Of a stretch of DNA of 64,000 nt, positions 3,615-38,346 are shown piece after piece. Each line of letters begins with the position of its first letter. Position 1 is the stretch's first letter. The DNA is from Bacteroidia bacterium. Its GTDB lineage: Bacteria; Bacteroidota; Bacteroidia; Palsa-965. A program made the translations under genes and the position numbers. The notes under the pieces were generated by a model. It searched no databases. It was not told where the DNA came from and saw only the letters and a list, made by a program, of their open reading frames with translations. The stretch covers positions 27,584-91,583 of the forward strand of contig JAKLJE010000012.1 of the NCBI GenBank assembly GCA_023151315.1, read 5' to 3'.

Positions 3615-4886
3615 TTATTTATTCGGTGTTCGTTTCAGTTCTTCAATAAGGGCTGCAAAGTAAGCGGTTTTTTCCGGAAATTTCAAACTGAGTTTCTGGT
3701 AAGCCCGGATAGCCTTCGGAATATTGCCTTGTTTTGCGTAAATCCTTGCTAATGTTTCAGTTATGAACTCGTCCGACTCCTGTACGCTCTTCTTCGCCAT
3801 GTTCACAGGATTGAAAAAACCGGACTTTTTGACCTGAATTCGAGGTTCTTCCTTGATAAAACGTTCAATCAGCTCTTCTCCGTTAGATGAAACAGGTGCC
3901 TTCTGTTCGGCAATTGATTGCTTTTCTGTTTGCTTAACAGGTCCGTTCTGCTTCAACGATGCAACCCAAGTTGCAAATGACATTTCGCCGATGTTGATTT
4001 CCTGTTCTTCTTTTACAGGTTCAAGCGGTTTTTCAATCTCCGAATTGATAGTGTTTTCGGAAACGGTCTTAAGTTCACTTACATCCGGTAACTTATCGTC
4101 TGCTTCAAGTTCAAATACAGAGTGAATTGCCTCTACAAGTATATCCTGTTGAACAGGATCCTGCGGAACTTCAACATGGACTTGAGCCTCTTCTTTTTCT
4201 TCCTTGGAATCTTCAACAGGATGAATTTCCCACTTGGTTTCTGCTGTTGTATTCTCGATTTCAGCAACCGGCTCTTCCGATAACTCTTCGCCGATATCTT
4301 CCGATTGACCGGGTTCTACCAATACATAAAGCAGTGTATTCAGTTCATCTTTGGCATCAGGAATTTCGTGCTTCAGAACTTCGTTCGGAACTTCTTTCTG
4401 TTCTGCAGCCGGTGTGGTGTTTGCAATCGGATGTATTTCTTCCTTCGGCTTAACTTCTTCTTTTTCTTTTCCTCTCCAGTGATGCAACAACTGAAGCTGA
4501 CGCAACATTCCTGCTTCCCATTCATCGGGATTGGAAACGAATCGCTTCTCCGGAAATTTAGGCGGCGCAGATTTTATTTCCTGTTTTTGCTCTTCCACAG
4601 GCAAAGCAATTTCAACCTTCGAAACTGTTGTTTCTTCAACCGGCTCAACGGCGTCCTTACGTTTGATCAGATCATACAACACTTTACGATCAGCAACATA
4701 AATCGCGGCTGATTTAAGCTGATTGTTGTAAAGAAAACTTCCCTGATTGTGAAGATTCTTGATGTATAGCAAATGCGCAGTCTGAAAATACGGATACGAT
4801 TGCAGAAGTGAATCCAGTTGCGCACCGTCTTCTCTTCCGGACATTCCCGGTTTTCTCATCCATTCCAGCAATTGCTTCGCGTTCAT
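3615..4886 (-). CDS. Hypothetical protein with TPR-like termini and an acidic, E/K-rich low-complexity core.
   Basis: The first codon of the track ORF is GTG. ATG at 4884-4886 overlaps the lptE stop by 1 nt. The C-terminus LARIYAKQGNIPKAIRAYQKLSLKFPEK is TPR-like. Confidence 0.5.
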   Translation of the reverse strand: MNAKQLLEWMRKPGMSGREDGAQLDSLLQSYPYFQTAHLLYIKNLHNQGSFLYNNQLKSAAIYVADRKVLYDLIKRKDAVEPVEETTVSKVEIALPVEEQKQEIKSAPPKFPEKRFVSNPDEWEAGMLRQLQLLHHWRGKEKEEVKPKEEIHPIANTTPAAEQKEVPNEVLKHEIPDAKDELNTLLYVLVEPGQSEDIGEELSEEPVAEIENTTAETKWEIHPVEDSKEEKEEAQVHVEVPQDPVQQDILVEAIHSVFELEADDKLPDVSELKTVSENTINSEIEKPLEPVKEEQEINIGEMSFATWVASLKQNGPVKQTEKQSIAEQKAPVSSNGEELIERFIKEEPRIQVKKSGFFNPVNMAKKSVQESDEFITETLARIYAKQGNIPKAIRAYQKLSLKFPEKTAYFAALIEELKRTPNK

Positions 4887-5416
4887 CACCAGGCGTAAAT
4901 TGATCGGTTGATAATGTCCTGAGTGATCTGGTCGGTAATTTCTTTAATCAAAGCATCTTCCACACTCGAAATATCGGTGGTACTCGGGAAATCCGCAAAT
5001 CGGCTGAAGTTTCCGTCGAAACTGTAACGATCTTCAATGTCGTCGGTGTACTTCACTTTCACAGTGATGGTAAGTCGGTTTAATGAAGCCTGATCAGTGG
5101 CACCTCCTGTAATCGCAACCGGCGCAACGGAATATCCCGTGATTTCACCTTCGTAATTCAAATCTCCGCCTGAAGGCAGCAGCGTGAAACGCGTTTGTCT
5201 CTGGATGAAATCTCGCAAAGATTCAGTCATCGTCTGCGCTAAAGAAGGCTTTGCTAGTGGTGCTGAGTTCGTAAACAGCAACACAGATACCGTTACTGAA
5301 TCATCCAGCGTTCTACCACCAGCTCCGGTTTGGTTGTACTGAATATGCTTGCATGAGAAAATACTCAGAGCAAACAGAGTGATTACAACAGCGAAGTATG
5401 TCAGTTTTCTGCTCAT
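4886..5416 (-). CDS. lptE: LptE-family lipoprotein (LPS assembly).
   Basis: Lipobox signal peptide MSRKLTYFAVVITLFALSIFSC. About 175 aa. Sits in the conserved miaB-EBP-lptE-secG context. Confidence 0.6.
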   Translation of the reverse strand: MSRKLTYFAVVITLFALSIFSCKHIQYNQTGAGGRTLDDSVTVSVLLFTNSAPLAKPSLAQTMTESLRDFIQRQTRFTLLPSGGDLNYEGEITGYSVAPVAITGGATDQASLNRLTITVKVKYTDDIEDRYSFDGNFSRFADFPSTTDISSVEDALIKEITDQITQDIINRSIYAW

Positions 5417-6669
5417 CCCTTGATGTTGTATTCGTTGATCTTTCTGTACAATGTACGTTCTGAAATACCAAGTTCTTTTGCCGCATTCTTCCGTTTGCCG
5501 CGATGCTTGTCAAGCGCTTTCGTGATCAGCTCGATTTCTTTGTCCTGCAGGCTCAAGGAATCTTCAACAACTTCTTCCGGTGCAAGAATTTCTTCATGCG
5601 GATTATTCCATGTCGGTTGGTGAATTACAACGGCATCATCGCTGTTGCGTACTGCCGTTTGCTGATTCTGATAATCGGAAAAATGTTTCTGTATTACAGG
5701 CCCGCTTTGCTGAAGCACCTCCGGCGTAATGCGCCCTCCGTTCTGAATCAGTTGCATCGTCAGTGCTTTCAGATCGTTCAGCTCCGTGCGCATTTGCTGA
5801 AGCAATTGAAAAAGAAAATCTCTTTCCTGCGCTTCGTTGCCGGTTTGTTGTGCACGTGCCAGTACCGGAACTCCGGTCATGGCCGATTGATGATCCGGAA
5901 GATATTTCTTCAATGTTTCCGCATCTATCTCACGTGCTTTCTCAATGATGGAAAGTTGTTCAGTTACATTTTTCAGTTGACGGATATTCCCGTGCCAATA
6001 GTAATTCACAAGAAGTTTCTCGGCATCCGGCATCAGTTTAATCACCGGCATTCTGTACTTCGCTGCAAAATCAGCAGCAAATTTCCGGAACAGCAAATGA
6101 ATATCCTGACGACGATCACGCAGCGGTGGCAAGAGAATCGGAACGGTGTTCAGTCGGTAATAAAGATCTTCTCTGAATTTTCCTCTGCCGATGGCTTCAG
6201 GAATATTTACGTTGGTCGCTGCAACCACCCGCACGTTGGTCTTCTGAACTTTTGAGGATCCTACGCGGATGAATTCTCCTGTTTCCAAAACACGAAGCAA
6301 ACGCGCCTGCGTGGCCATAGGCATTTCAGCAACTTCATCAAGGAAAATAGTTCCTCCGTCAGCAACTTCAAAATATCCTTTGCGCGCTTCTGTTGCGCCT
6401 GTGAACGATCCTTTCTCGTGACCGAAAAGTTCGGAGTCAATCGTTCCTTCCGGAATCGCTCCGCAGTTCACCGCAATATAAGCACCGTGTTTTCGCGCCG
6501 ACATCTGATGAATGATCTGCGGGAAAACTTCCTTACCTGTTCCGCTTTCTCCATTGATAAGTACAGCCAGATCTGTTGGCGCCACTTGCACAGCAATATC
6601 AATCGCACGATCCAGTTGAGGTGTCGTACCGATAATGCCGAAGCGTTGTTTTATATCTTGTATTGTCAT
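5413..6669 (-). CDS. Sigma-54-dependent Fis-family transcriptional activator (AAA+ plus HTH, no receiver or sensor domain).
   Basis: Walker A motif GESGTGKE. The GAFTGA-like loop reads GSFTGA. C-terminal HTH RKNAAKELGISERTLYRKINEY. Start placed at ATG 6667-6669 (MTIQDIK) because the first track codon is TTG. Confidence 0.85.
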   Translation of the reverse strand: MTIQDIKQRFGIIGTTPQLDRAIDIAVQVAPTDLAVLINGESGTGKEVFPQIIHQMSARKHGAYIAVNCGAIPEGTIDSELFGHEKGSFTGATEARKGYFEVADGGTIFLDEVAEMPMATQARLLRVLETGEFIRVGSSKVQKTNVRVVAATNVNIPEAIGRGKFREDLYYRLNTVPILLPPLRDRRQDIHLLFRKFAADFAAKYRMPVIKLMPDAEKLLVNYYWHGNIRQLKNVTEQLSIIEKAREIDAETLKKYLPDHQSAMTGVPVLARAQQTGNEAQERDFLFQLLQQMRTELNDLKALTMQLIQNGGRITPEVLQQSGPVIQKHFSDYQNQQTAVRNSDDAVVIHQPTWNNPHEEILAPEEVVEDSLSLQDKEIELITKALDKHRGKRKNAAKELGISERTLYRKINEYNIKG

Positions 6670-25885: not shown

Positions 25886-25893
25886 TATATTTG
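25886..25893 (+). promoter_or_regulatory. Candidate Bacteroidota sigma-A -7 box TATATTTG upstream of the hisG leader.
   Basis: It matches the TAnnTTTG consensus. A TTG sits at 25865-25867, about 18 nt upstream. The motif ends 4 nt before the leader ATG. Confidence 0.45.
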
Positions 25894-25897
25894 CCAC

Positions 25898-25954
25898 ATG
25901 AAAATGAACAACACAATGAAACATCACCATCAGTTTGCAGGGCGCAAGCTGTGA
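25898..25954 (+). CDS. Putative his leader peptide MKMNNTMKHHHQFAGRKL.
   Basis: An 18-codon ORF with CAT CAC CAT at 25922-25930. It lies between the promoter box and a terminator hairpin upstream of hisG. Confidence 0.5.
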   Translation: MKMNNTMKHHHQFAGRKL

Positions 25955-25979
25955 TTTTTCATTTGAGAAATATTTCACG

Positions 25980-26010
25980 AGGCTTGCTGTAAAGGCAAGC
26001 CTTTTTTATT
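25980..26010 (+). terminator. Attenuator/terminator hairpin upstream of hisG.
   Basis: AGGCTTGC (25980-87) and GCAAGCCT (25995-26002) form a perfect 8-bp stem with loop TGTAAAG, followed by TTTTTTATTT. A leader segment GCGCAAGCT (25943-51) can alternatively pair with the 5' arm. Confidence 0.7.
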
Positions 26011-30371: not shown

Positions 30372-31481
30372 CTATTTCTGTTCTGGTGATTTAATCGGAT
30401 AATACGTGTTCAGAAGATTGTAGTACGGACCGAAATAGTGATGTGTGAAAATACTTTTACCGTTATCCGGAAAAAGTTTGTGATAGTTTTCGTCCGGCTG
30501 GAGAATAATAGGAATGCCGCATGGATAATAAGCCATGCTCTTTACGTATTTCTGTTTAGGCATACCCGGAATTCGCTTACGCACCAGTTTTCCTGTTTTG
30601 TGAGCGAGATATTTTCGGAATCTTCGTTCCGCTCTTTTTGCTCCGCGGTTCATTTTTTTAATCACGTGATTTCCGATGAGTTTGGCGGGGAATCCAATTC
30701 GCACGCGTTTATCAAATTCCGAAAAAGGATTTCCGGGGCTAAGATCATTTATGGTTTGTACACTGAATGGAACTTCCGGGACCCAATCAGCTGTGTTCAC
30801 TATTCTGAATGCCCATCCGCCCCGCGAAATAAAATCGAAGTCGTATGAATACTTCAGATTTCCGGGTTTTGGTGCAGCACTTCCGTAAACTTTTAATCTG
30901 ATATCTGCAGGAATCGTTACTCCTCGTTTGTAATGAAGATACGAGTACAGCAGAAACGAAATTGCTGCACCTTGTGAATGACCGACGATTATAAAATCGC
31001 GAATACCGTTTTTGTACTGTTCATTGATTTTATCAGTCACGTTTTTAGCAATGCTCGCGAGTCCGATTGTCCATCCGATATGCACATAAGCCAGTGAATC
31101 CTGCGCAAGTTTATAATCGAATAATATTCCGTTTCCCAAGTTCAGCTTTCCGGTTGCGGGAATCATTCCGGCATAGAAATTCTCCAACCAAGAATCATTA
31201 GAAGCAGTAGTTCCCCGCACGCTGATTACTGCCACTGAATCGTTGCTCAGCCACATGTCCCAGCGGTTGTCAAGTCCGCCAACGGTAGAGCGATGAATCA
31301 TATTATATCCGGCAGGATAAGGAACCCGCATTTTATTCCAAGGCGTGTCAATCTGATGAGCACTGATCTGAAACATTTTTCTGAATTCAGCACCGTCAAA
31401 ACCCGGTTGAATACGACGGGCTTCAGCCGCAGCATCAAACTGCAGCAGAAATAGTAGCGTTAAGACGAGAGCTCTGCCCAT
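30372..31481 (-). CDS. Secreted class-3 lipase-like alpha/beta hydrolase.
   Basis: Signal peptide MGRALVLTLLFLLQFDAAAEA. Nucleophile elbow IVGHSQGAAISFL. Encoded on the opposite strand between the two his sub-operons. Confidence 0.7.
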   Translation of the reverse strand: MGRALVLTLLFLLQFDAAAEARRIQPGFDGAEFRKMFQISAHQIDTPWNKMRVPYPAGYNMIHRSTVGGLDNRWDMWLSNDSVAVISVRGTTASNDSWLENFYAGMIPATGKLNLGNGILFDYKLAQDSLAYVHIGWTIGLASIAKNVTDKINEQYKNGIRDFIIVGHSQGAAISFLLYSYLHYKRGVTIPADIRLKVYGSAAPKPGNLKYSYDFDFISRGGWAFRIVNTADWVPEVPFSVQTINDLSPGNPFSEFDKRVRIGFPAKLIGNHVIKKMNRGAKRAERRFRKYLAHKTGKLVRKRIPGMPKQKYVKSMAYYPCGIPIILQPDENYHKLFPDNGKSIFTHHYFGPYYNLLNTYYPIKSPEQK

Positions 31482-31570: not shown

Positions 31571-31578
31571 TATATTTG
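31571..31578 (+). promoter_or_regulatory. Candidate -7 box TATATTTG upstream of the second his leader.
   Basis: TATATTTGCC occurs 4 nt before leader ATG 31583, identical to the hisG arrangement. Confidence 0.45.
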
Positions 31579-31582
31579 CCTT

Positions 31583-31630
31583 ATGATTCTTAAACACATC
31601 TCAGTACATCATCATTTCTTATCGTTTTAA
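31583..31630 (+). CDS. Putative second his leader peptide MILKHISVHHHFLSF.
   Basis: A 15-codon ORF with CAT CAT CAT at 31607-31615. It is followed by a terminator hairpin before the PabA/TrpG-type gene and hisH. Confidence 0.5.
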   Translation: MILKHISVHHHFLSF

Positions 31631-31664
31631 GGAAGCGATGGTAACTCTGTTGATATAAATCAGA

Positions 31665-31690
31665 ACCCGCTTCCAAAGCGGGTTTTTTAT
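31665..31690 (+). terminator. Attenuator/terminator hairpin upstream of the PabA/TrpG-hisH-hisA-hisF-hisIE genes.
   Basis: ACCCGCTT (31665-72) and AAGCGGGT (31676-83) form a perfect 8-bp stem with loop CCA, followed by TTTTTATTAT. GGAAGCG (31631-37), just after the leader stop, is perfectly complementary to CGCTTCC (31668-74) and can form an antiterminator. Confidence 0.7.
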
Positions 31691-31702
31691 TATCTTGAAA
31701 CT

Positions 31703-32287
31703 ATGCCTGATTTCAGAATCTTGATTATTGACAACTACGATTCGTTCACCTACAATTTGGTGCACGAAATCGGGCGAGTGTGTCCTGAGGCATATATACA
31801 CGTTGTGCAAAATGATGTTGTAGATCCGTCGGATTGTTTCAACTACAATTGCATTGTGCTTTCTCCGGGCCCGGGTATTCCTGAAGAGTCCGGAAAATTG
31901 CTGGATGTGATTCGGGTGGCGGCAGGAAAGATTCCTATTCTCGGAGTGTGCCTTGGTCACCAAGCTTTGAATGTTGCATGCGGAGGTCAATTGAAAAATC
32001 TCAGTAAGGTTTTTCACGGCGTGAGTACGCCGATCGTTGTTACCGACAAAGACTCTGTTTTATTCCAAGGTTTTGGAACACAGTTTAACGCAGGTCGCTA
32101 TCATTCCTGGGTGATCGATGAAGAAACGCTGCCGGAGTCATTTACGATTACAGCGCAGGATGAATCAGGTAATGTGATGGCCATCGAAAACAAAGAGAAA
32201 AAAATGTTTGGAATACAATTTCATCCGGAGTCAATCATGACACCTGAAGGCAAACGTATCATACGTAATTTTTTATCCGTTGTATGA
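31703..32287 (+). CDS. Class-I glutamine amidotransferase of the PabA/TrpG type (aminodeoxychorismate or anthranilate synthase component II).
   Basis: The hallmark IIDNYDSFTYNLV is present, with catalytic GVCLGHQ and a His at the expected position in FHPES. Distinct from the HisH gene that follows. Confidence 0.8.
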   Translation: MPDFRILIIDNYDSFTYNLVHEIGRVCPEAYIHVVQNDVVDPSDCFNYNCIVLSPGPGIPEESGKLLDVIRVAAGKIPILGVCLGHQALNVACGGQLKNLSKVFHGVSTPIVVTDKDSVLFQGFGTQFNAGRYHSWVIDEETLPESFTITAQDESGNVMAIENKEKKMFGIQFHPESIMTPEGKRIIRNFLSVV

Positions 32288-32868
32288 AGATCGTAATTGT
32301 TAAATATAACGCTGGCAATGCAACGTCTGTTCGATTTGCGCTGCAACGTTTGGGAGCAGACGCTGTAGTCTCCAATGAACCGGAGATTATCAAGAGTGCA
32401 GATCGTGTGATTTTTCCCGGAGTTGGCGAAGCGTCTTCTGCAATGCAGTTTTTACGCAAAGCCGGACTTGATAATGTGATAAAGGAACTGCGTCAACCGG
32501 TTCTGGGTATTTGCCTTGGAATGCAGTTGATGTGTTCCCAAAGTGAAGAAGGTAATACCGAAGCGCTTGGAATATTTCCTGTTCAGGTGAAGAAATTTCC
32601 TGAAGCTGAATTCAAAGTTCCGCATATGGGATGGAACACGCTGTCCAATCTTAAAGGACCATTGTTTGCAGGCGTTCCCGATCAGGCATTTATGTATTAC
32701 GTACATAGTTTCTATGCCGAACAATGTGCGTATACTATTGCAAGCACTGAATACATTCTGAATTATTCTGCTGCGTTGCAAAAAGACAATTACTTCGGTG
32801 TGCAATTTCACCCTGAGAAAAGCGGCGCTGAGGGAGAACGTATTATCAAAAACTTTCTGGAAGTATGA
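32284..32868 (+). CDS. hisH: Imidazole glycerol phosphate synthase glutamine amidotransferase subunit HisH.
   Basis: N-terminus MKIVIVKYNAGN. GICLGMQ motif. FHPEKSG motif. ATGA overlap with the upstream gene. Confidence 0.88.
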   Translation: MKIVIVKYNAGNATSVRFALQRLGADAVVSNEPEIIKSADRVIFPGVGEASSAMQFLRKAGLDNVIKELRQPVLGICLGMQLMCSQSEEGNTEALGIFPVQVKKFPEAEFKVPHMGWNTLSNLKGPLFAGVPDQAFMYYVHSFYAEQCAYTIASTEYILNYSAALQKDNYFGVQFHPEKSGAEGERIIKNFLEV

Positions 32869-33596
32869 TTGAGATTATTCCTGCAATAGACATTATTGAC
32901 GGCAAGTGCGTGCGACTTACCGAGGGGGATTACCAACGCATGACCGTTTACAATAGCGATCCGGTTGCGGTTGCGTCTCAGTTTGAACAGGCGGGTGTAC
33001 GCCGACTGCATCTCGTGGATCTGGATGGAGCGAAAGCGGGAACAGTGAAGAATCTTGCGGTACTGGAACGCATTGCTGCAGCTACTAAACTTATAATTGA
33101 TTTTGGTGGCGGAGTAAAAACAGAGACAGAAATGAATTCTGTTTTATCTGCCGGAGCTTCTTTTGTAACGGTTGGTAGTCTGGCTGCTAAATCGCCTGAA
33201 GTATTTGAAATGTGGTTGGCAAATTCCGGAGCGGATAATTTTTTCATCGGTGCGGATGTCAGAGCGGGAAAGATCGCAGTGAGTGGTTGGTTGGAGCAAA
33301 CAGATATCGAAGTGGTTGAGTTTATTCGCGATCTGATGAATAAACGGGTGCATTATTTTTTCTGTACGGATATTTCAAAAGATGGTAAACTGGAAGGGCC
33401 TTCGGAAGAGCTTTACAGAATGATCATCGCTCGCTGTCCGGGAATACGTTTGGTGGCGAGTGGAGGTATCAGTAATTGGGAAGATATTTATTGCATGGAG
33501 AAGCTGGGCTGTGAAGGTGTGATAATTGGTAAAGCATTTTATGAAAATCGTATTTCTATCAAGGAAATCGAAAAGTTTAATCTGAACGCTTTGTGA
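32865..33596 (+). CDS. hisA: ProFAR isomerase HisA.
   Basis: N-terminus [18 protein letters not shown]. (beta/alpha)8 fold. Overlaps the hisH stop. Confidence 0.88.
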
Positions 33597-33597
33597 A

Positions 33598-34353
33598 ATG
33601 CTGACGAAAAGAATTATTCCATGCCTTGATGTGAAGAATGGTCGCACCGTTAAAGGTGTCAACTTTGTAAATCTGCGTGACGCAGGTGATGCAGTTGAAC
33701 TGGCTTCGCGTTATGCGGAAGAAGGGGCTGACGAGTTGGTGCTTCTGGATATCTCTGCAACCGATGAAAAACGGAAAACATTAGCAGAACTCGTTAGGAA
33801 TGTAGCAGCAGCGGTGAATATTCCATTCACTGTTGGAGGCGGTATTGTCGGGATAGAAGATGTGCGTTCAATACTTGAAAACGGTGCGGATAAGGTTTCC
33901 GTGAATTCAGCCGCAGTGCGGGATCATCTGTTGATTGATGCGTTGGCGCGCGAGTTCGGAAGTCAATGCGTGGTTGTGGCGGTAGATACGCGTCGCACTG
34001 CTCAAGGGAATCGCGTATTTCTGAATGGAGGAAAGGTTGCAACCGAGCTTGATACTTTGGAATGGATCAAAGAAGCAGAACAACGCGGTGCAGGAGAAAT
34101 TCTTCTGACTTCCATGGATCATGACGGAACGAAGAACGGTTTTGATGTGGAATTTCTGAAAGAGGTTTCCTCATCCGTACGGATACCGGTTATCGCGTCA
34201 GGAGGAGCGGGCACAATGGAACATTTCGCAGAAGCATTTCTTAAATCGGGAGCTGATGCAGCACTGGCAGCGAGTATTTTTCATTTCGGTGAAATCCGCA
34301 TCAAGGACCTGAAGGATTATCTTTACAAGCAAGGAATTCAGATTCGCTTATGA
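33598..34353 (+). CDS. hisF: Imidazole glycerol phosphate synthase cyclase subunit HisF.
   Basis: N-terminus [23 protein letters not shown]. Confidence 0.9.
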
Positions 34354-35003
34354 GAACATTTACTATTGCAGCACTTCTGATTGTATTGATATCAGGATGT
34401 TCGCATTCCAGATTTGTGAAGCCGCTCAATCCGGGGCAACATGCAGTTACTGCTTCGTTCGGCGGACCATTGATAAAGTTCAGCGGTGCGGTAATTCCGA
34501 TTCCGCTTACTTCGATAGGTTACGGGTACGGAGTGGATACAAATCTTACGTTGTTCGGGAATCTGCACACTACTTCATTGTTGTACGGTACAGGACAAGT
34601 TGATGCCGGTGTGTGTTGGAATGTGTTTACCGTAAATCGTTTCGGTTTAAATGCTGCTGTGTCCGCGAATATGACCATGGATAAGTGGGAGAAGAATTTC
34701 AGAGCGTGGCCGGTAGTTGATTTGAATCTCACTTTCGACAGAAAGCAAGGCGGCTATTGGTATCTGGGATGCAATAACTGGATTGAGTTTACAAAGCAGC
34801 GCTCTCATGGCGTGAATCAGGAGCGACAATTGATATTCTCTCCGCAAATCGGGCATATGTTCCTGAAGGAAAAGTGGCGTTTCCAGATTGAAGCAAAATA
34901 CATTTTACCATACGTGAAGAACCAACCCAATGCAGTGGATTACATCGGGTTGAATCACTACGGAGCAACAGGAGTTTATTTCGGACTTTACAGAACATTC
35001 TGA
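34350..35003 (+). CDS. Hypothetical lipoprotein translationally coupled to hisF.
   Basis: Lipobox [10 protein letters not shown]. The ATGA overlap with the hisF stop, the beta-rich sequence and the C-terminal Phe suggest an outer-membrane protein. Confidence 0.5.
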
Positions 35004-35902
35004 TGAGAAATCTGATCATAGCATTCTTAAGCGCAGCGTTGATATTTACTGCCTGTCAGCGCCTTGATACCAATCTGTACAACAGAACTGATAAATTGAC
35101 GCAGTATGAACTGGATGATTACACAGGCGAACAGGATTTCAAACTGGATGCGTCTTACGATATTCCGGATTCGCTTGTTCATGTTTTCTCATTGCAGAGT
35201 CAGGCTGACGGAGAAGGCAGTTCGACCACGATTTATGCAATTTACATTGGTGAAATTTCCAACATAGCAACAGATACAGTGATTCTGTATTGTCATGGCA
35301 ACAAGTGGCATATGGATTTTTACTGGCAACGTGCGAAGTTGCTGGCTCATTGCGGAGGAAAGAATCGCTTTGGTGTGTTGATGATTGATTACCGCGGATA
35401 TGGAATGTCTGATGGAGATCCTACCGAAGAAGGTTTGTATGCCGATGTTGATGCTGCAATGAAATGGTTGCAACAAAACGGGATGAACAATGATCGTTTA
35501 GCGATCTATGGTTTCAGTATGGGAAGTGCCCCTGCAACTGAACTTTGTTCAAAGCCAAGAACATTAACTCCGGGCTGGTTGCTGCTCGAAGCACCGTTTG
35601 CGTCAGCTGCTGTTATGGTGGAAGACGGTACACAACTGGCAATGCCTTCTTCGTATTTCACCAATCTCGAGATTGACTGTGCTGAAGAAATTAAACGTTG
35701 CAATCAGCCATTGTTCTGGACGCACGGGCTAGCGGATATGTTTCTCGGATACAACACGCACGGTCAGGTTGTATATGATAACCATCGCGGTGTGTACAAA
35801 GAATCTCATCCGGTTGACAATGCCGATCACGGAGAAGTGCCTGCGAAAACAGGATTCACAACATATTGCAACAACATCAGCAACTTCATAACACAACATT
35901 AA
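35003..35902 (+). CDS. Alpha/beta hydrolase lipoprotein.
   Basis: Lipobox FTAC. Nucleophile elbow GFSMGS. TGATG overlap upstream and TAATG overlap with hisIE downstream. Confidence 0.6.
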   Translation: MRNLIIAFLSAALIFTACQRLDTNLYNRTDKLTQYELDDYTGEQDFKLDASYDIPDSLVHVFSLQSQADGEGSSTTIYAIYIGEISNIATDTVILYCHGNKWHMDFYWQRAKLLAHCGGKNRFGVLMIDYRGYGMSDGDPTEEGLYADVDAAMKWLQQNGMNNDRLAIYGFSMGSAPATELCSKPRTLTPGWLLLEAPFASAAVMVEDGTQLAMPSSYFTNLEIDCAEEIKRCNQPLFWTHGLADMFLGYNTHGQVVYDNHRGVYKESHPVDNADHGEVPAKTGFTTYCNNISNFITQH

Positions 35903-36495
35903 TGAAACCGGATTATTCCAAATATTCAGACGGACTTGTTCCCGCTGTAATTCAGGACGCAGCTACAGGAGTTGTGTTAATGCTTGGCTTTATGAATGAA
36001 GATGCATTGCAAGCAACTCATTCTTCGGGGAACGTTACGTTCTGGTCGCGCAGTAAAAATCGCTTGTGGACAAAAGGAGAAGAGAGCGGTAATTTCCTCA
36101 GAGTTGTCGATGTTCGTATTGATTGCGATAATGATACGTTGCTCGTTAAAGCAAATCCTGTTGGGCCGGTGTGTCATACGGGTGCTGATACATGCTGGAA
36201 TGAATTGAACACGGGAGATTTTCTCCGTCAGATGGAAAGAGTAATTCAATCGCGAAAAGGCGCTGATCCTTCCACTTCATATACAGCACAATTGTATTTC
36301 AAAGGAATCAACAAGATTGCTCAAAAAGTAGGAGAGGAGGCGGTTGAATTGGTGATTGAAGCGAAGGACGATGACAAAGAAAAGTTTTTGGGAGAAGCAG
36401 CAGATCTGCTGTTTCATTACACTGTTTTACTTTCTGCTAAAGGATTTGCAATTAAAGATGTGGAAGAAGTGCTGAAAGCACGTCACAAGAAATAA
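35902..36495 (+). CDS. hisI: Bifunctional phosphoribosyl-AMP cyclohydrolase / phosphoribosyl-ATP pyrophosphatase HisIE.
   Basis: HisI motif CHTGADTCW followed by the HisE helical domain. Start ATG overlaps the upstream TAA. Confidence 0.85.
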   Translation: MKPDYSKYSDGLVPAVIQDAATGVVLMLGFMNEDALQATHSSGNVTFWSRSKNRLWTKGEESGNFLRVVDVRIDCDNDTLLVKANPVGPVCHTGADTCWNELNTGDFLRQMERVIQSRKGADPSTSYTAQLYFKGINKIAQKVGEEAVELVIEAKDDDKEKFLGEAADLLFHYTVLLSAKGFAIKDVEEVLKARHKK

Positions 36496-36497
36496 CC

Positions 36498-37241
36498 CTA
36501 CATTTTTTTCTCTTCCACCATCTGTCCGCGAACGTACTCCTGTACTGCGATCAGTTTACCGGTTTCGTCGTACACATTCCACTTGCCTTCTTTCAGAAAG
36601 TTATCCAGTTCTTCATAATACTGCATCGTGCCTTCGGTTTGCATTTTGCCGTTTTCGAAATATTCCTTGTGTGAATACCTTTTCTTTTTCTTGTCGAGCA
36701 ACTGCATGTCGGATTGCAGATTTCCGTTTTCGTAATAAAACTGACGGAACTTCAGATAGTCACATTTATCAGCAAACTCTTCCATGAATTCCGGTTTACC
36801 ATTGGAATAATATTCCATGGTAATCATTTCCGCACCTTGATAATATGTGATGTTTGATCGAATCTGTCCGTTGTCGTAGTACAGAATCATTTGATAACGG
36901 AAATAGTCAAGCGACTTGAACTCGCGCTCCATCTGTCCGTTCTCATAATAGTTTTTGTAAGTGGTGAGCATTCCATCCTGATAATATCCGGAATGCATCA
37001 GCGTGCCGTTTTTGTAGTAATCTTCCCACCAACCTTGAGACGCGTATCCTTTTGGGTTATAGCGAACGGAATCACCGCCCATTAAACGGTTCAGCTTTTC
37101 ATAAATATCTATTCCCGAAGCGGAATCATAAATAGCTGCGAATTCATAATACTTCCGCGTGTCTTTCTGTTTACCGAACTGGGCAAAAGAAGGAACCGAA
37201 ATGAACAGTGCCAGAAATAAAATTGAAATCCGCAGAATCAT
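36498..37241 (-). CDS. MORN-repeat-variant (YwqK-like) secreted protein.
   Basis: Signal peptide followed by repeated YYENG/YYDNG/YYSNG units. Confidence 0.65.
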   Translation of the reverse strand: MILRISILFLALFISVPSFAQFGKQKDTRKYYEFAAIYDSASGIDIYEKLNRLMGGDSVRYNPKGYASQGWWEDYYKNGTLMHSGYYQDGMLTTYKNYYENGQMEREFKSLDYFRYQMILYYDNGQIRSNITYYQGAEMITMEYYSNGKPEFMEEFADKCDYLKFRQFYYENGNLQSDMQLLDKKKKRYSHKEYFENGKMQTEGTMQYYEELDNFLKEGKWNVYDETGKLIAVQEYVRGQMVEEKKM

Positions 37242-37277
37242 GGTGTTCCGCGAAGATACAAAATCGCGCTTACAGGA

Positions 37278-38225
37278 TTAGTGTCCTTTGGCTGCTAAAT
37301 AACGTTCAGCATCCAAAGCACCCATACATCCGCTTCCTGCAGCAGTTACAGCCTGACGGTAAACTTTGTCCTGAGCATCACCAACTGCGAATACACCTTC
37401 GATATTGGTTTTGCTTGTGCCCGGAATAGTTTTGATATAACCGGATTCATCCATATCCAGCCATCCTTTGAAGATGTCCGTATTCGGTTTGTGTCCGATC
37501 GCCACGAAGAAACCGTAAATATCTATTGTACGATCCTGACCTGTCTTGGAATTGTGAATGATTGCCCCGGTTACACCGGTATCATTTCCGAGAACTTCTT
37601 TCGTCTCAGAATCGAAAAGCACTTCAATGTTCGGTGTATTGAGTACACGATGTTGCATTGCTTTAGAGGCACGCATCTCGCCTTTGCGAACAATCATGTA
37701 AACCTTATTGCAAAGTTTAGCCAGATAAGTAGCTTCTTCAGCCGCAGTATCTCCTGCACCAACAATAGCTACATCTTTACCGCGATAGAAAAATCCGTCA
37801 CAAACTGCGCACGCAGAAACGCCACCGACTGAACGATATTTTTGTTCTGATTCAAGTCCTAGCCACTTCGCAGAAGCACCTGTAGCAACAATTACCGTAT
37901 CAGCATGAATTTCGATTTTGTCGTCAATCCACACTTTGTGAACCGGTCCGGAAAAATCCACTTTAGTTGCCCATCCGAAGCGAATGTCAGTCTTGAAACG
38001 CTCCGCCTGCGCTTTGAAAAGTTCCATCATCTCAGGACCCTGTACTCCGTGAGGAAATCCCGGATAGTTTTCCACTTCAGTTGTTGTGGTCAACTGGCCG
38101 CCTGGCTCAGGACCCATGTACATCATTGGTTTCAGATCTGCACGAGCGGCATAAATTGCAGCAGTATATCCGGCAGGACCTGATCCTATGATCAGGCAGC
38201 TAACTTTTTCAGGTGATTGGCTCAT
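37278..38225 (-). CDS. trxB: Thioredoxin-disulfide reductase.
   Basis: FAD motif IIGSGPAGYTAA. Redox CAVCDG. NAD(P) motif GAGDTA. Start at ATG (MSQSPEK). Confidence 0.9.
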   Translation of the reverse strand: MSQSPEKVSCLIIGSGPAGYTAAIYAARADLKPMMYMGPEPGGQLTTTTEVENYPGFPHGVQGPEMMELFKAQAERFKTDIRFGWATKVDFSGPVHKVWIDDKIEIHADTVIVATGASAKWLGLESEQKYRSVGGVSACAVCDGFFYRGKDVAIVGAGDTAAEEATYLAKLCNKVYMIVRKGEMRASKAMQHRVLNTPNIEVLFDSETKEVLGNDTGVTGAIIHNSKTGQDRTIDIYGFFVAIGHKPNTDIFKGWLDMDESGYIKTIPGTSKTNIEGVFAVGDAQDKVYRQAVTAAGSGCMGALDAERYLAAKGH

Positions 38226-38346
38226 AGTGCGTGTTGTATTTTTTGTGTTGAGTGCGGACAAAAATAGCAACTATCCTGAACCTTGCACATTCGATTCGGC
38301 TGATACCCCGATTGTTTTTGTCTATCCGGGCTGATTCATGTCATTT

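Follow-up and report, generated by a model that had tools for sequence, protein, structure and literature searches.

Why should two genes for exported proteins lie, with overlapping start and stop codons, between two genes of histidine biosynthesis? The question is raised by a 64,000-nt stretch of a metagenome-assembled "Bacteroidia bacterium" (GenBank assembly GCA_023151315.1, contig JAKLJE010000012.1, positions 27,584 to 91,583; hereafter the window, with positions counted from its first letter), in which hisF and hisIE are separated by two genes that we call X and Y. We find that X and Y are one two-gene module, strictly conserved, which existed before it came to lie among his genes and occurs independently of them, and that hisF-X-Y-hisIE is a new example of the known heterogeneous-his-operon phenomenon, with an uncharacterised envelope pair. 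It is probable, in our judgement, that X and Y are passenger "alien genes" in the his operon and constitute an outer-membrane module without a role in histidine synthesis.

Two Overlapping Genes Separate hisF from hisIE

The four genes follow one another on the forward strand: hisF (33598–34353; TIGR00735, 358 bits, above the cut-off), X (34350–35003; 217 aa), Y (35003–35902; 299 aa) and hisIE (35902–36495; NF002747, 272.6 bits, above the cut-off). An inspection made from the letters alone (the sequence-only reading) had described three start–stop overlaps linking these genes, and all three are present: ATGA at hisF/X, where the TGA stop of hisF (34351–34353) lies over the start codon of X (34350–34352) in a 4-nt overlap; TGATG at X/Y, where the TGA stop of X (35001–35003) has one base in common with the start codon of Y (35003–35005); and TAATG at Y/hisIE, where the TAA stop of Y (35900–35902) has one base in common with the start codon of hisIE (35902–35904). 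A longer hisIE frame could begin at a TTG at 35866; the ATG at 35902 is the likely start, because the match to the HisIE profile sets in at residue 4 of the protein read from that ATG and the HisIE proteins of relatives are 197–202 aa long. In the public annotation of the window, X is a "hypothetical protein" (MCK6640224.1) and Y an "alpha/beta hydrolase" (MCK6640225.1).

Non-his genes set amid same-strand his genes, with overlaps of 4, 1, and 1 nt, agree with the definition of a heterogeneous his operon, with spacers that leave too little room for separate regulation, given by Del Duca et al. (2021; PMC8305728), who report that Bacteroidetes his operons hold "alien" non-his genes with very short spacers. 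The same study also presents the hisF–hisIE junction as a repeated insertion point, occupied by an aspartate racemase in Maribacter, an acetyltransferase in Mucilaginibacter, a MarR regulator in Polaribacter and two hypothetical proteins in Pedobacter psychrophilus (PMC8305728). The window resembles these operons in its alien genes, its spacing and the junction concerned; it differs from the cases described there in its insert, two conserved genes that make up an envelope module where those operons have one cytoplasmic enzyme or regulator, and the X-Y cassette is not named among the alien genes tabulated in the available part of that source (PMC8305728). Knowledge of histidine biosynthesis is unchanged by this locus, which adds one well-documented case to the alien-gene pattern.

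X and Y Form One Cassette across Bacteroidota

A scan with a profile of Y, restricted to one genome per species, returned 80 loci, all in metagenome bins and labeled mostly as Bacteroidota (Bacteroidia, Flavobacteriales, Chitinophagaceae, Cytophagaceae, Sphingobacteriaceae), with a few from other phyla. In 77 of these 80 loci, X is the gene directly before Y; when metagenome loci are included, the two genes are adjacent in every locus in which both are complete (96 of 96), separated by 10 nt or less in 77 of these, with a median gap of 1 nt. Neither the 80 genome loci nor 23 metagenome loci holding both genes have a his gene within ~7–8 kb of the pair, and at least 87 X-Y loci of other Bacteroidota are without a his gene within that distance. 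The sequence-only reading had treated X and Y as two passengers of the operon, a view that gives way to one of a single cassette on the strength of this unbroken adjacency and of the many loci remote from his genes.

Beyond the pair itself, no conserved neighborhood was found around X-Y outside the his-embedded lineage described below (the largest cluster of neighbors accounts for 13 of 84 loci). A gene on the same strand precedes X by 20 nt or less in 25 of 87 loci, and such genes, hisF apart, encode lipoyl synthase (lipA), a GatA-type amidase, Tex, an FtsX/LolE-like permease and a family-9 glycosyltransferase (heptosyltransferase family); the pair repeatedly comes to ride behind unrelated housekeeping genes. 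A 250-aa exported protein without a Pfam match is encoded together with lipoyl synthase near X-Y in five loci (L008, at 5652–6416, L016, L024, L027, and L037), upstream of the pair in four of them and downstream in L037. The X-Y family is strictly paired, widespread in environmental Bacteroidota and unstudied, and joins a barrel protein that has no Pfam model to a highly conserved lipoprotein esterase, both as predicted from models described below.

A Single His-Embedded Clade and an Empty Site

The sequence-only reading had asked whether the arrangement is conserved among relatives, and indeed the order hisF-X-Y-hisIE recurs in 10 other independent assemblies (the P0096 contig, L081–L088, and L118), all from one clade of uncultured Bacteroidia. 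The recurrence makes a chance arrangement unlikely. At nearly all junctions in these assemblies, neighboring genes overlap or stand at most 6 nt apart; their His proteins are 54–94% identical to those of the window and their X proteins 41–87% identical to X, whereas other metagenome loci with a full-length X match reach at most 45% identity and have no his genes nearby. X, Y, and X+Y each give a neighbor-joining tree that groups the window with L081–L088 in one clade, which has a single interloper, L010, in which X-Y follows tex. The window does derive from a metagenome-assembled genome (MAG), and one might suspect an assembly or binning artefact of that single MAG; the same order in independent NCBI, JGI, ENA, and Logan assemblies, 5% to 50% diverged, leaves this explanation with a negligible probability.

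Gene order upstream of the cassette varies within the clade. Some members (L083 and L084) carry trpGDCFBA-aroG-hisHAF-X-Y-hisIE; others resemble the window, with hisGDCB, an opposite-strand class-3 lipase gene, trpG-like-hisHAF-X-Y-hisIE, a MORN-repeat gene and trxB. The trp-aroG-his supraoperon of L083 (1–10161), L084 (1–9490), and L119 (1–5594) is held together by overlaps or very short gaps and runs trpG-D-C-F-B-A, the DAHP synthase gene, hisH-A-F-(X-Y)-hisIE; in the window, the trpG-like gene alone remains before hisH. No trp gene other than this one, and no aroG, was found in the 64-kb window. Invasion of his operons by trp genes through introgression has been reported (PMC8305728).

The assembly L119, whose HisIE is 74% identical to that of the window, presents the site without the cassette: its order is trpB-trpA-aroG-hisH-hisA-hisF-hisIE, MORN-repeat gene, trxB, and its hisF and hisIE overlap by ATGA, so that hisF has the same ATGA overlap with the next gene with or without X-Y. 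The MORN-repeat and trxB pair is kept downstream in most clade members as well as in L119, which made the empty site recognizable. When HisH+HisA+HisF+HisIE are put in a tree with a Ferruginibacter locus (L120) that has a canonical operon as the root, L119 is nested within the X-Y-bearing clade. We tentatively read this as a single insertion close to the clade's base followed by at least one loss or relocation. Relatives in which hisF abuts hisIE had been proposed as evidence against a coupled arrangement; L119 is such a relative, and the 10 other assemblies keep X-Y.

Both genes are clearly functional, as judged from substitution patterns, and under purifying selection as strong as that on the his genes: relative to L085, X has a dN/dS of 0.07 and Y one of 0.03, with most his genes at 0.02–0.05, and Y is 95% identical against 90–92% for the His enzymes. 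Recent horizontal transfer of X-Y is unsupported, the GC and GC3 of the two genes being equal to those of their neighbors. In the same comparison, the trpG-like gene and hisH (31703–32868 in the window, 4354–5495 in L085) are just 70% and 66% identical, whereas identity is 87–95% for X, Y, and the flanking his genes, which suggests that the leader-trpG-hisH segment was replaced through recombination.

We hypothesize that X-Y entered the hisF/hisIE overlap in one piece in the ancestor of this clade, after which X would have inherited the ATGA overlap with hisF and hisIE would have become coupled to the stop codon of Y. The relatives make such a history readable, in a pre-formed cassette, an empty site, an ATGA kept at the insertion point and later rearrangement around it. 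The module, which often lacks an upstream intergenic region of its own, would have been retained since it is expressed adequately and would be difficult to excise without damage to the operon.

Predicted Folds and Candidate Functions of X and Y

Protein X matched no family in Pfam or NCBIfam, and a profile of X against PDB sequences returned nothing meaningful (best E = 0.74). Its family comprises 521 representatives (E ≤ 0.001) out of 1.84 billion cluster representatives, with full-length members of ~220 aa. An AlphaFold model built from 59 homologues (pLDDT 88.9) shows a signal helix followed by ~10 long antiparallel strands, several of them amphipathic, and the C-terminal residue is an almost invariant Phe across the family; from the amphipathic strands, the C-terminal Phe and the confident model, X is predicted to be a small outer-membrane beta-barrel of ~10 strands, with the signal peptide, closed antiparallel amphipathic barrel and C-terminal aromatic residue expected of that class. 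Cys17 is invariant in the 59 sequences and stands in a canonical lipobox (ISGC) in the window; lipidation of X is uncertain, because the residue before the Cys varies over the family (S, N, G, R, A, C, or Y). Where the sequence-only reading had X as a lipoprotein, its predicted export and the ISGC cysteine stand for the window protein, but the predicted beta-barrel makes X something other than simply a lipoprotein.

In its predicted 10-strand antiparallel barrel, amphipathic strands, signal peptide and C-terminal Phe, X is like OpcA, OmpT, autotransporter beta-domains, the KdgM/NanC porins and LpxR. It differs from these small barrels in sequence (6–11% identity), in its invariant Cys in a lipobox-like position, in always standing next to the gene for the esterase Y, and in having no passenger domain, no recognized catalytic motif and no Pfam family; the likeness to autotransporter beta-domains is confined to the fold level. 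We also rejected an autotransporter or two-partner secretion protein (X is 217 aa, a barrel alone, without a Pfam match, and shows neither a passenger nor Omp85/POTRA) and a lipid A deacylase or phospholipase of the LpxR/OMPLA type, for which a recognizable family profile plus a catalytic His/Ser site would be expected and were not seen.

Protein Y passes the Pfam gathering scores of Hydrolase_4 (45.6 bits, cut-off 27) and Abhydrolase_1 (42 bits, cut-off 25.8), and its best Pfam match bears the name "serine aminopeptidase S33". The AlphaFold model (pLDDT 89.1) is a standard alpha/beta-hydrolase. Invariant in 51 Y sequences are H98-G99-N100 (the oxyanion motif), S172 (within the GFSMGS motif, residues 170–175), D245, and H276, and the three triad residues follow model strands 166–171, 237–242, and 266–271, as they do strands 5, 7, and 8 of the canonical fold. 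A lipobox ([L/F]-[S/T/A]-[S/G/A]-C; FTAC in the window) is present in all 51, and conservation is unusually high for such an enzyme (61–70% identity over many Bacteroidota). The signal peptide of X and the lipoprotein signal of Y uphold the earlier prediction that both proteins are exported. The nearest solved structures to Y are esterases and lipases, not peptidases; the Pf2001 esterase, the alpha/beta-hydrolase (ABH) domain of the MARTX toxin and monoacylglycerol lipases share 17–19% identity with it, and Y is unlike all of these in being a lipoprotein and in carrying ~70 additional, conserved residues at its N terminus. Y is probably a lipid-anchored Ser-Asp-His carboxyl-esterase whose substrate would be a lipid or another envelope ester. 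From predicted fold and localization alone, we infer that Y may be an outer-membrane-associated lipid or ester hydrolase, with X as its anchor, channel or partner.

Could Y instead perform a missing or alternative step of histidine synthesis, such as that of a histidinol-phosphate phosphatase? Its operon position, and nothing else, speaks for this, and non-homologous histidinol-phosphate phosphatases are described for other bacteria (PMC9798254). However, the window encodes HisG, HisD, HisC, HisB, HisH, HisA, HisF, and HisIE, with no pathway step missing. Because HisB is a bifunctional histidinol-phosphatase/imidazoleglycerol-phosphate dehydratase (NF003937, 518 bits against a cut-off of 443) with a complete N-terminal phosphatase domain (TIGR01261, 159 bits), Y supplies no missing step, as the sequence-only reading had argued in also holding X and Y to be non-His genes, and correctly on both counts. 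The lipoprotein signal of 51 of 51 family members would moreover place Y outside the cytoplasm, and its catalytic residues are of the Ser-Asp-His esterase type. A role for Y as a pathway enzyme is thus exceedingly improbable, and we reject the phosphatase assignment on the intact HisB domain, the lipoprotein signal and the esterase-type triad together.

Candidate Histidine Attenuators Precede Both Halves of the his Cluster

A class-3 lipase gene on the reverse strand divides the his cluster into hisGDCB and trpG-hisHAF-X-Y-hisIE, and because it does, the second unit needs a promoter of its own. The first gene of that unit encodes a trpG/pabA-like glutamine amidotransferase (31703–32287, forward strand; Pfam GATase; TIGR00566, 182 bits against a cut-off of 121), the end of which overlaps the start of hisH (32284–32868, forward strand; TIGR01855, 209 bits); hisA follows (32865–33596, forward strand; TIGR00007, 233.6 bits). 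The 221-nt spacer before the trpG-like gene holds, in this order and on the forward strand, a match to TAnnTTTG, which we take to be the −7 promoter element of Bacteroidetes (TATATTTG, 31571–31578, found by pattern search, with similar motifs in the corresponding place in L081 and L085–L088); a putative leader open reading frame (ORF) of 15 codons ending in a stop (MILKHISVHHHFLSF, 31583–31630), in which CAT CAT CAT is preceded by a fourth His codon upstream; a candidate antiterminator segment, GGAAGCG (31631–31637), complementary to CGCTTCC (31668–31674) in the left arm of the terminator; and a predicted intrinsic terminator with an 11-bp stem and T-run (31662–31691), ending 12 nt before the trpG-like start. 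A second attenuator-like region stands on the same strand before hisGDCB (25886–26003), with TATATTTG at 25886–25893, the leader MKMNNTMKHHHQFAGRKL and its stop at 25898–25954 (His run CAT CAC CAT), and a terminator of 10 bp plus T-run at 25979–26003, ending 18 nt before the hisG start.

The leader RNA before the trpG-like gene folds better than all shuffles (z = −3.4), and in the resting fold its His codons pair with a downstream segment. With a ribosome footprint masked at the last His codon and the transcript truncated ahead of the terminator 3′ arm, the upstream segment sequestered each of the 11 bases of the terminator left arm, and the same procedure on the hisG leader sequestered 7 of 10; this masked-footprint folding is an in silico exercise in which the cut RNA mimics co-transcriptional folding, and is not a kinetic simulation. 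In full-length minimum-free-energy folding with the masked ribosome, the terminator persists and no antiterminator forms, and Rfam matched no family, His_leader included, over the whole window at gathering score. In silico, the spacer carries a His-codon leader ORF, a terminator directly before the first gene and mutually exclusive pairings, which together characterize an attenuator. It is like enterobacterial his and trp attenuation in its short His-run ORF, its terminator before the first structural gene and its alternative antiterminator pairing. Enterobacterial his leaders have seven His codons; those here have three or four. Two further departures from the classical case are the pair of predicted attenuators, one per pathway half, and the presence of both Trp and His codons within a single leader in some relatives.

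Leaders before the trpG-like gene in relatives are His-rich or mixed His/Trp: MKDNKNKHLHCRHHSIIS in L081, MSSQFSKIHNVHHAQ in L086, MFMQINKWNHHCTSI in L085 (4233–4280; KWNHH, with Trp and His codons) and MNIATTTFHWWHSGCLNCAV in L087 (4164–4226), the last near-identical in L088 (3486–3548) with a common FHWWHS core. Leaders of the window and of L081 hold His codons without Trp. This variation suggests that the attenuator shifted its amino-acid specificity following a trp-his operon fusion, and the paired His attenuators and mixed Trp/His leaders make a tidy system for the study of such a change.

Scanning for sigma-70 promoters is not informative in Bacteroidota (16 sites found, 22.5 expected), and TAnnTTTG was used instead. 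On the forward strand between 31400 and 36500, the sole match besides 31571 is at 33445, within hisA, and none was found between 33453 and 36495. The motif is depleted in the whole window (23 matches against 44.8 ± 7.3 in shuffles), which is consistent with selection against spurious promoters. Since a leader, terminator and antiterminator precede the unit and promoter motifs are nearly absent downstream, we infer that transcription of X-Y depends on histidine: trpG-like-hisH-hisA-hisF-X-Y-hisIE would probably be one transcript, issuing from the promoter and a leader attenuator that senses charged His-tRNA, with translation handed from gene to gene by termination–reinitiation, and histidine starvation would raise X-Y expression merely through the location of the cassette. 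Histidine-controlled expression of X and Y, as proposed in the sequence-only reading, is therefore plausible, given the His leader with its terminator and antiterminator; a histidine-related function for them is not supported. Under such control of expression, histidine limitation in this lineage would provide a natural and predictable switch for probing what X-Y does.

Passenger Genes or Co-regulated Module

The coupling of X-Y to histidine appears to be an accident of where the genes lie in this one lineage, because the cassette is independent of his genes elsewhere and because L119 has no X-Y at the site. Several observations weigh against so passive a view. The embedding has outlasted a long divergence, with His proteins down to 54–69% identity, and has survived rearrangement upstream (a trp operon in some members, hisGDCB and the lipase in others), so that its persistence could reflect selection for co-regulation and not inertia; a functional link of X-Y to amino-acid starvation is unlikely in our estimation. 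The motif in hisA could yield some transcription that is independent of the attenuator, the trees are simple neighbor-joining trees without support values, which leaves the polarity of one gain and one loss tentative, and the source organism is an uncultured MAG.

The fullest alternative is that X-Y is a starvation-response module recruited into a His/Trp-attenuated operon because its induction is advantageous, for example as an outer-membrane channel with an esterase or aminopeptidase for nutrient scavenging or envelope remodeling. The arrangement is kept in 11 diverged assemblies despite the changes around it, conservation of Y matches that of the His enzymes (95% against 90–92% in L085), the leaders evolve yet retain His and/or Trp codons, the best Pfam match of Y carries an aminopeptidase name, and X has a likeness to KdgM, NanC, and similar small porins of narrow specificity. 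We nonetheless regard both this recruitment and the scavenging or remodeling role offered as its example as unlikely, since most X-Y pairs occur in contexts unrelated to amino-acid biosynthesis, L119 is nested in the clade without X-Y at the site, and esterases and lipases, not peptidases, are the closest structures to Y. A bolder form, rather unlikely in our view, makes X-Y a phylum-wide outer-membrane machine, in which the barrel would export, anchor or feed substrate to the esterase, and which was recruited under a His/Trp-sensing attenuator; it would correspond, in split form, to esterase autotransporters or to barrel-dependent surface-lipoprotein systems and, if real, would mean that amino-acid starvation directly triggers outer-membrane remodeling or nutrient scavenging. 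It is also conceivable, though quite improbable, that X-Y is expressed independently of the attenuator from an internal promoter in hisA or hisF, in which case position would say little on regulation: the match in hisA reads TACGTTTG at 33445, and X-Y has its own upstream intergenic region in ~60% of other lineages. That motif, however, would drive hisF too, the 900 nt preceding X contain no such motif, and overlaps of 4 nt and 1 nt leave no space for regulatory elements.

Neighboring Genes and a Related Operon

The lipase gene that divides the his cluster (30372–31481, reverse strand; Pfam Lipase_3) encodes a signal peptide, and its product is a second exported lipid hydrolase within the same his-operon region; the gene occupies the same position in L081, L085–L088, L118, and the P0096 contig. 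Downstream and convergent to hisIE (36498–38270, reverse strand) lie genes for a MORN-repeat protein with a signal peptide and for thioredoxin reductase. The Ferruginibacter his operon used as root (L120) has foreign genes of its own, a 23S-rRNA-IVP four-helix-bundle gene (200–559) between hisD and hisC and a 59-aa ORF (4832–5011) that bridges its hisF and hisIE.

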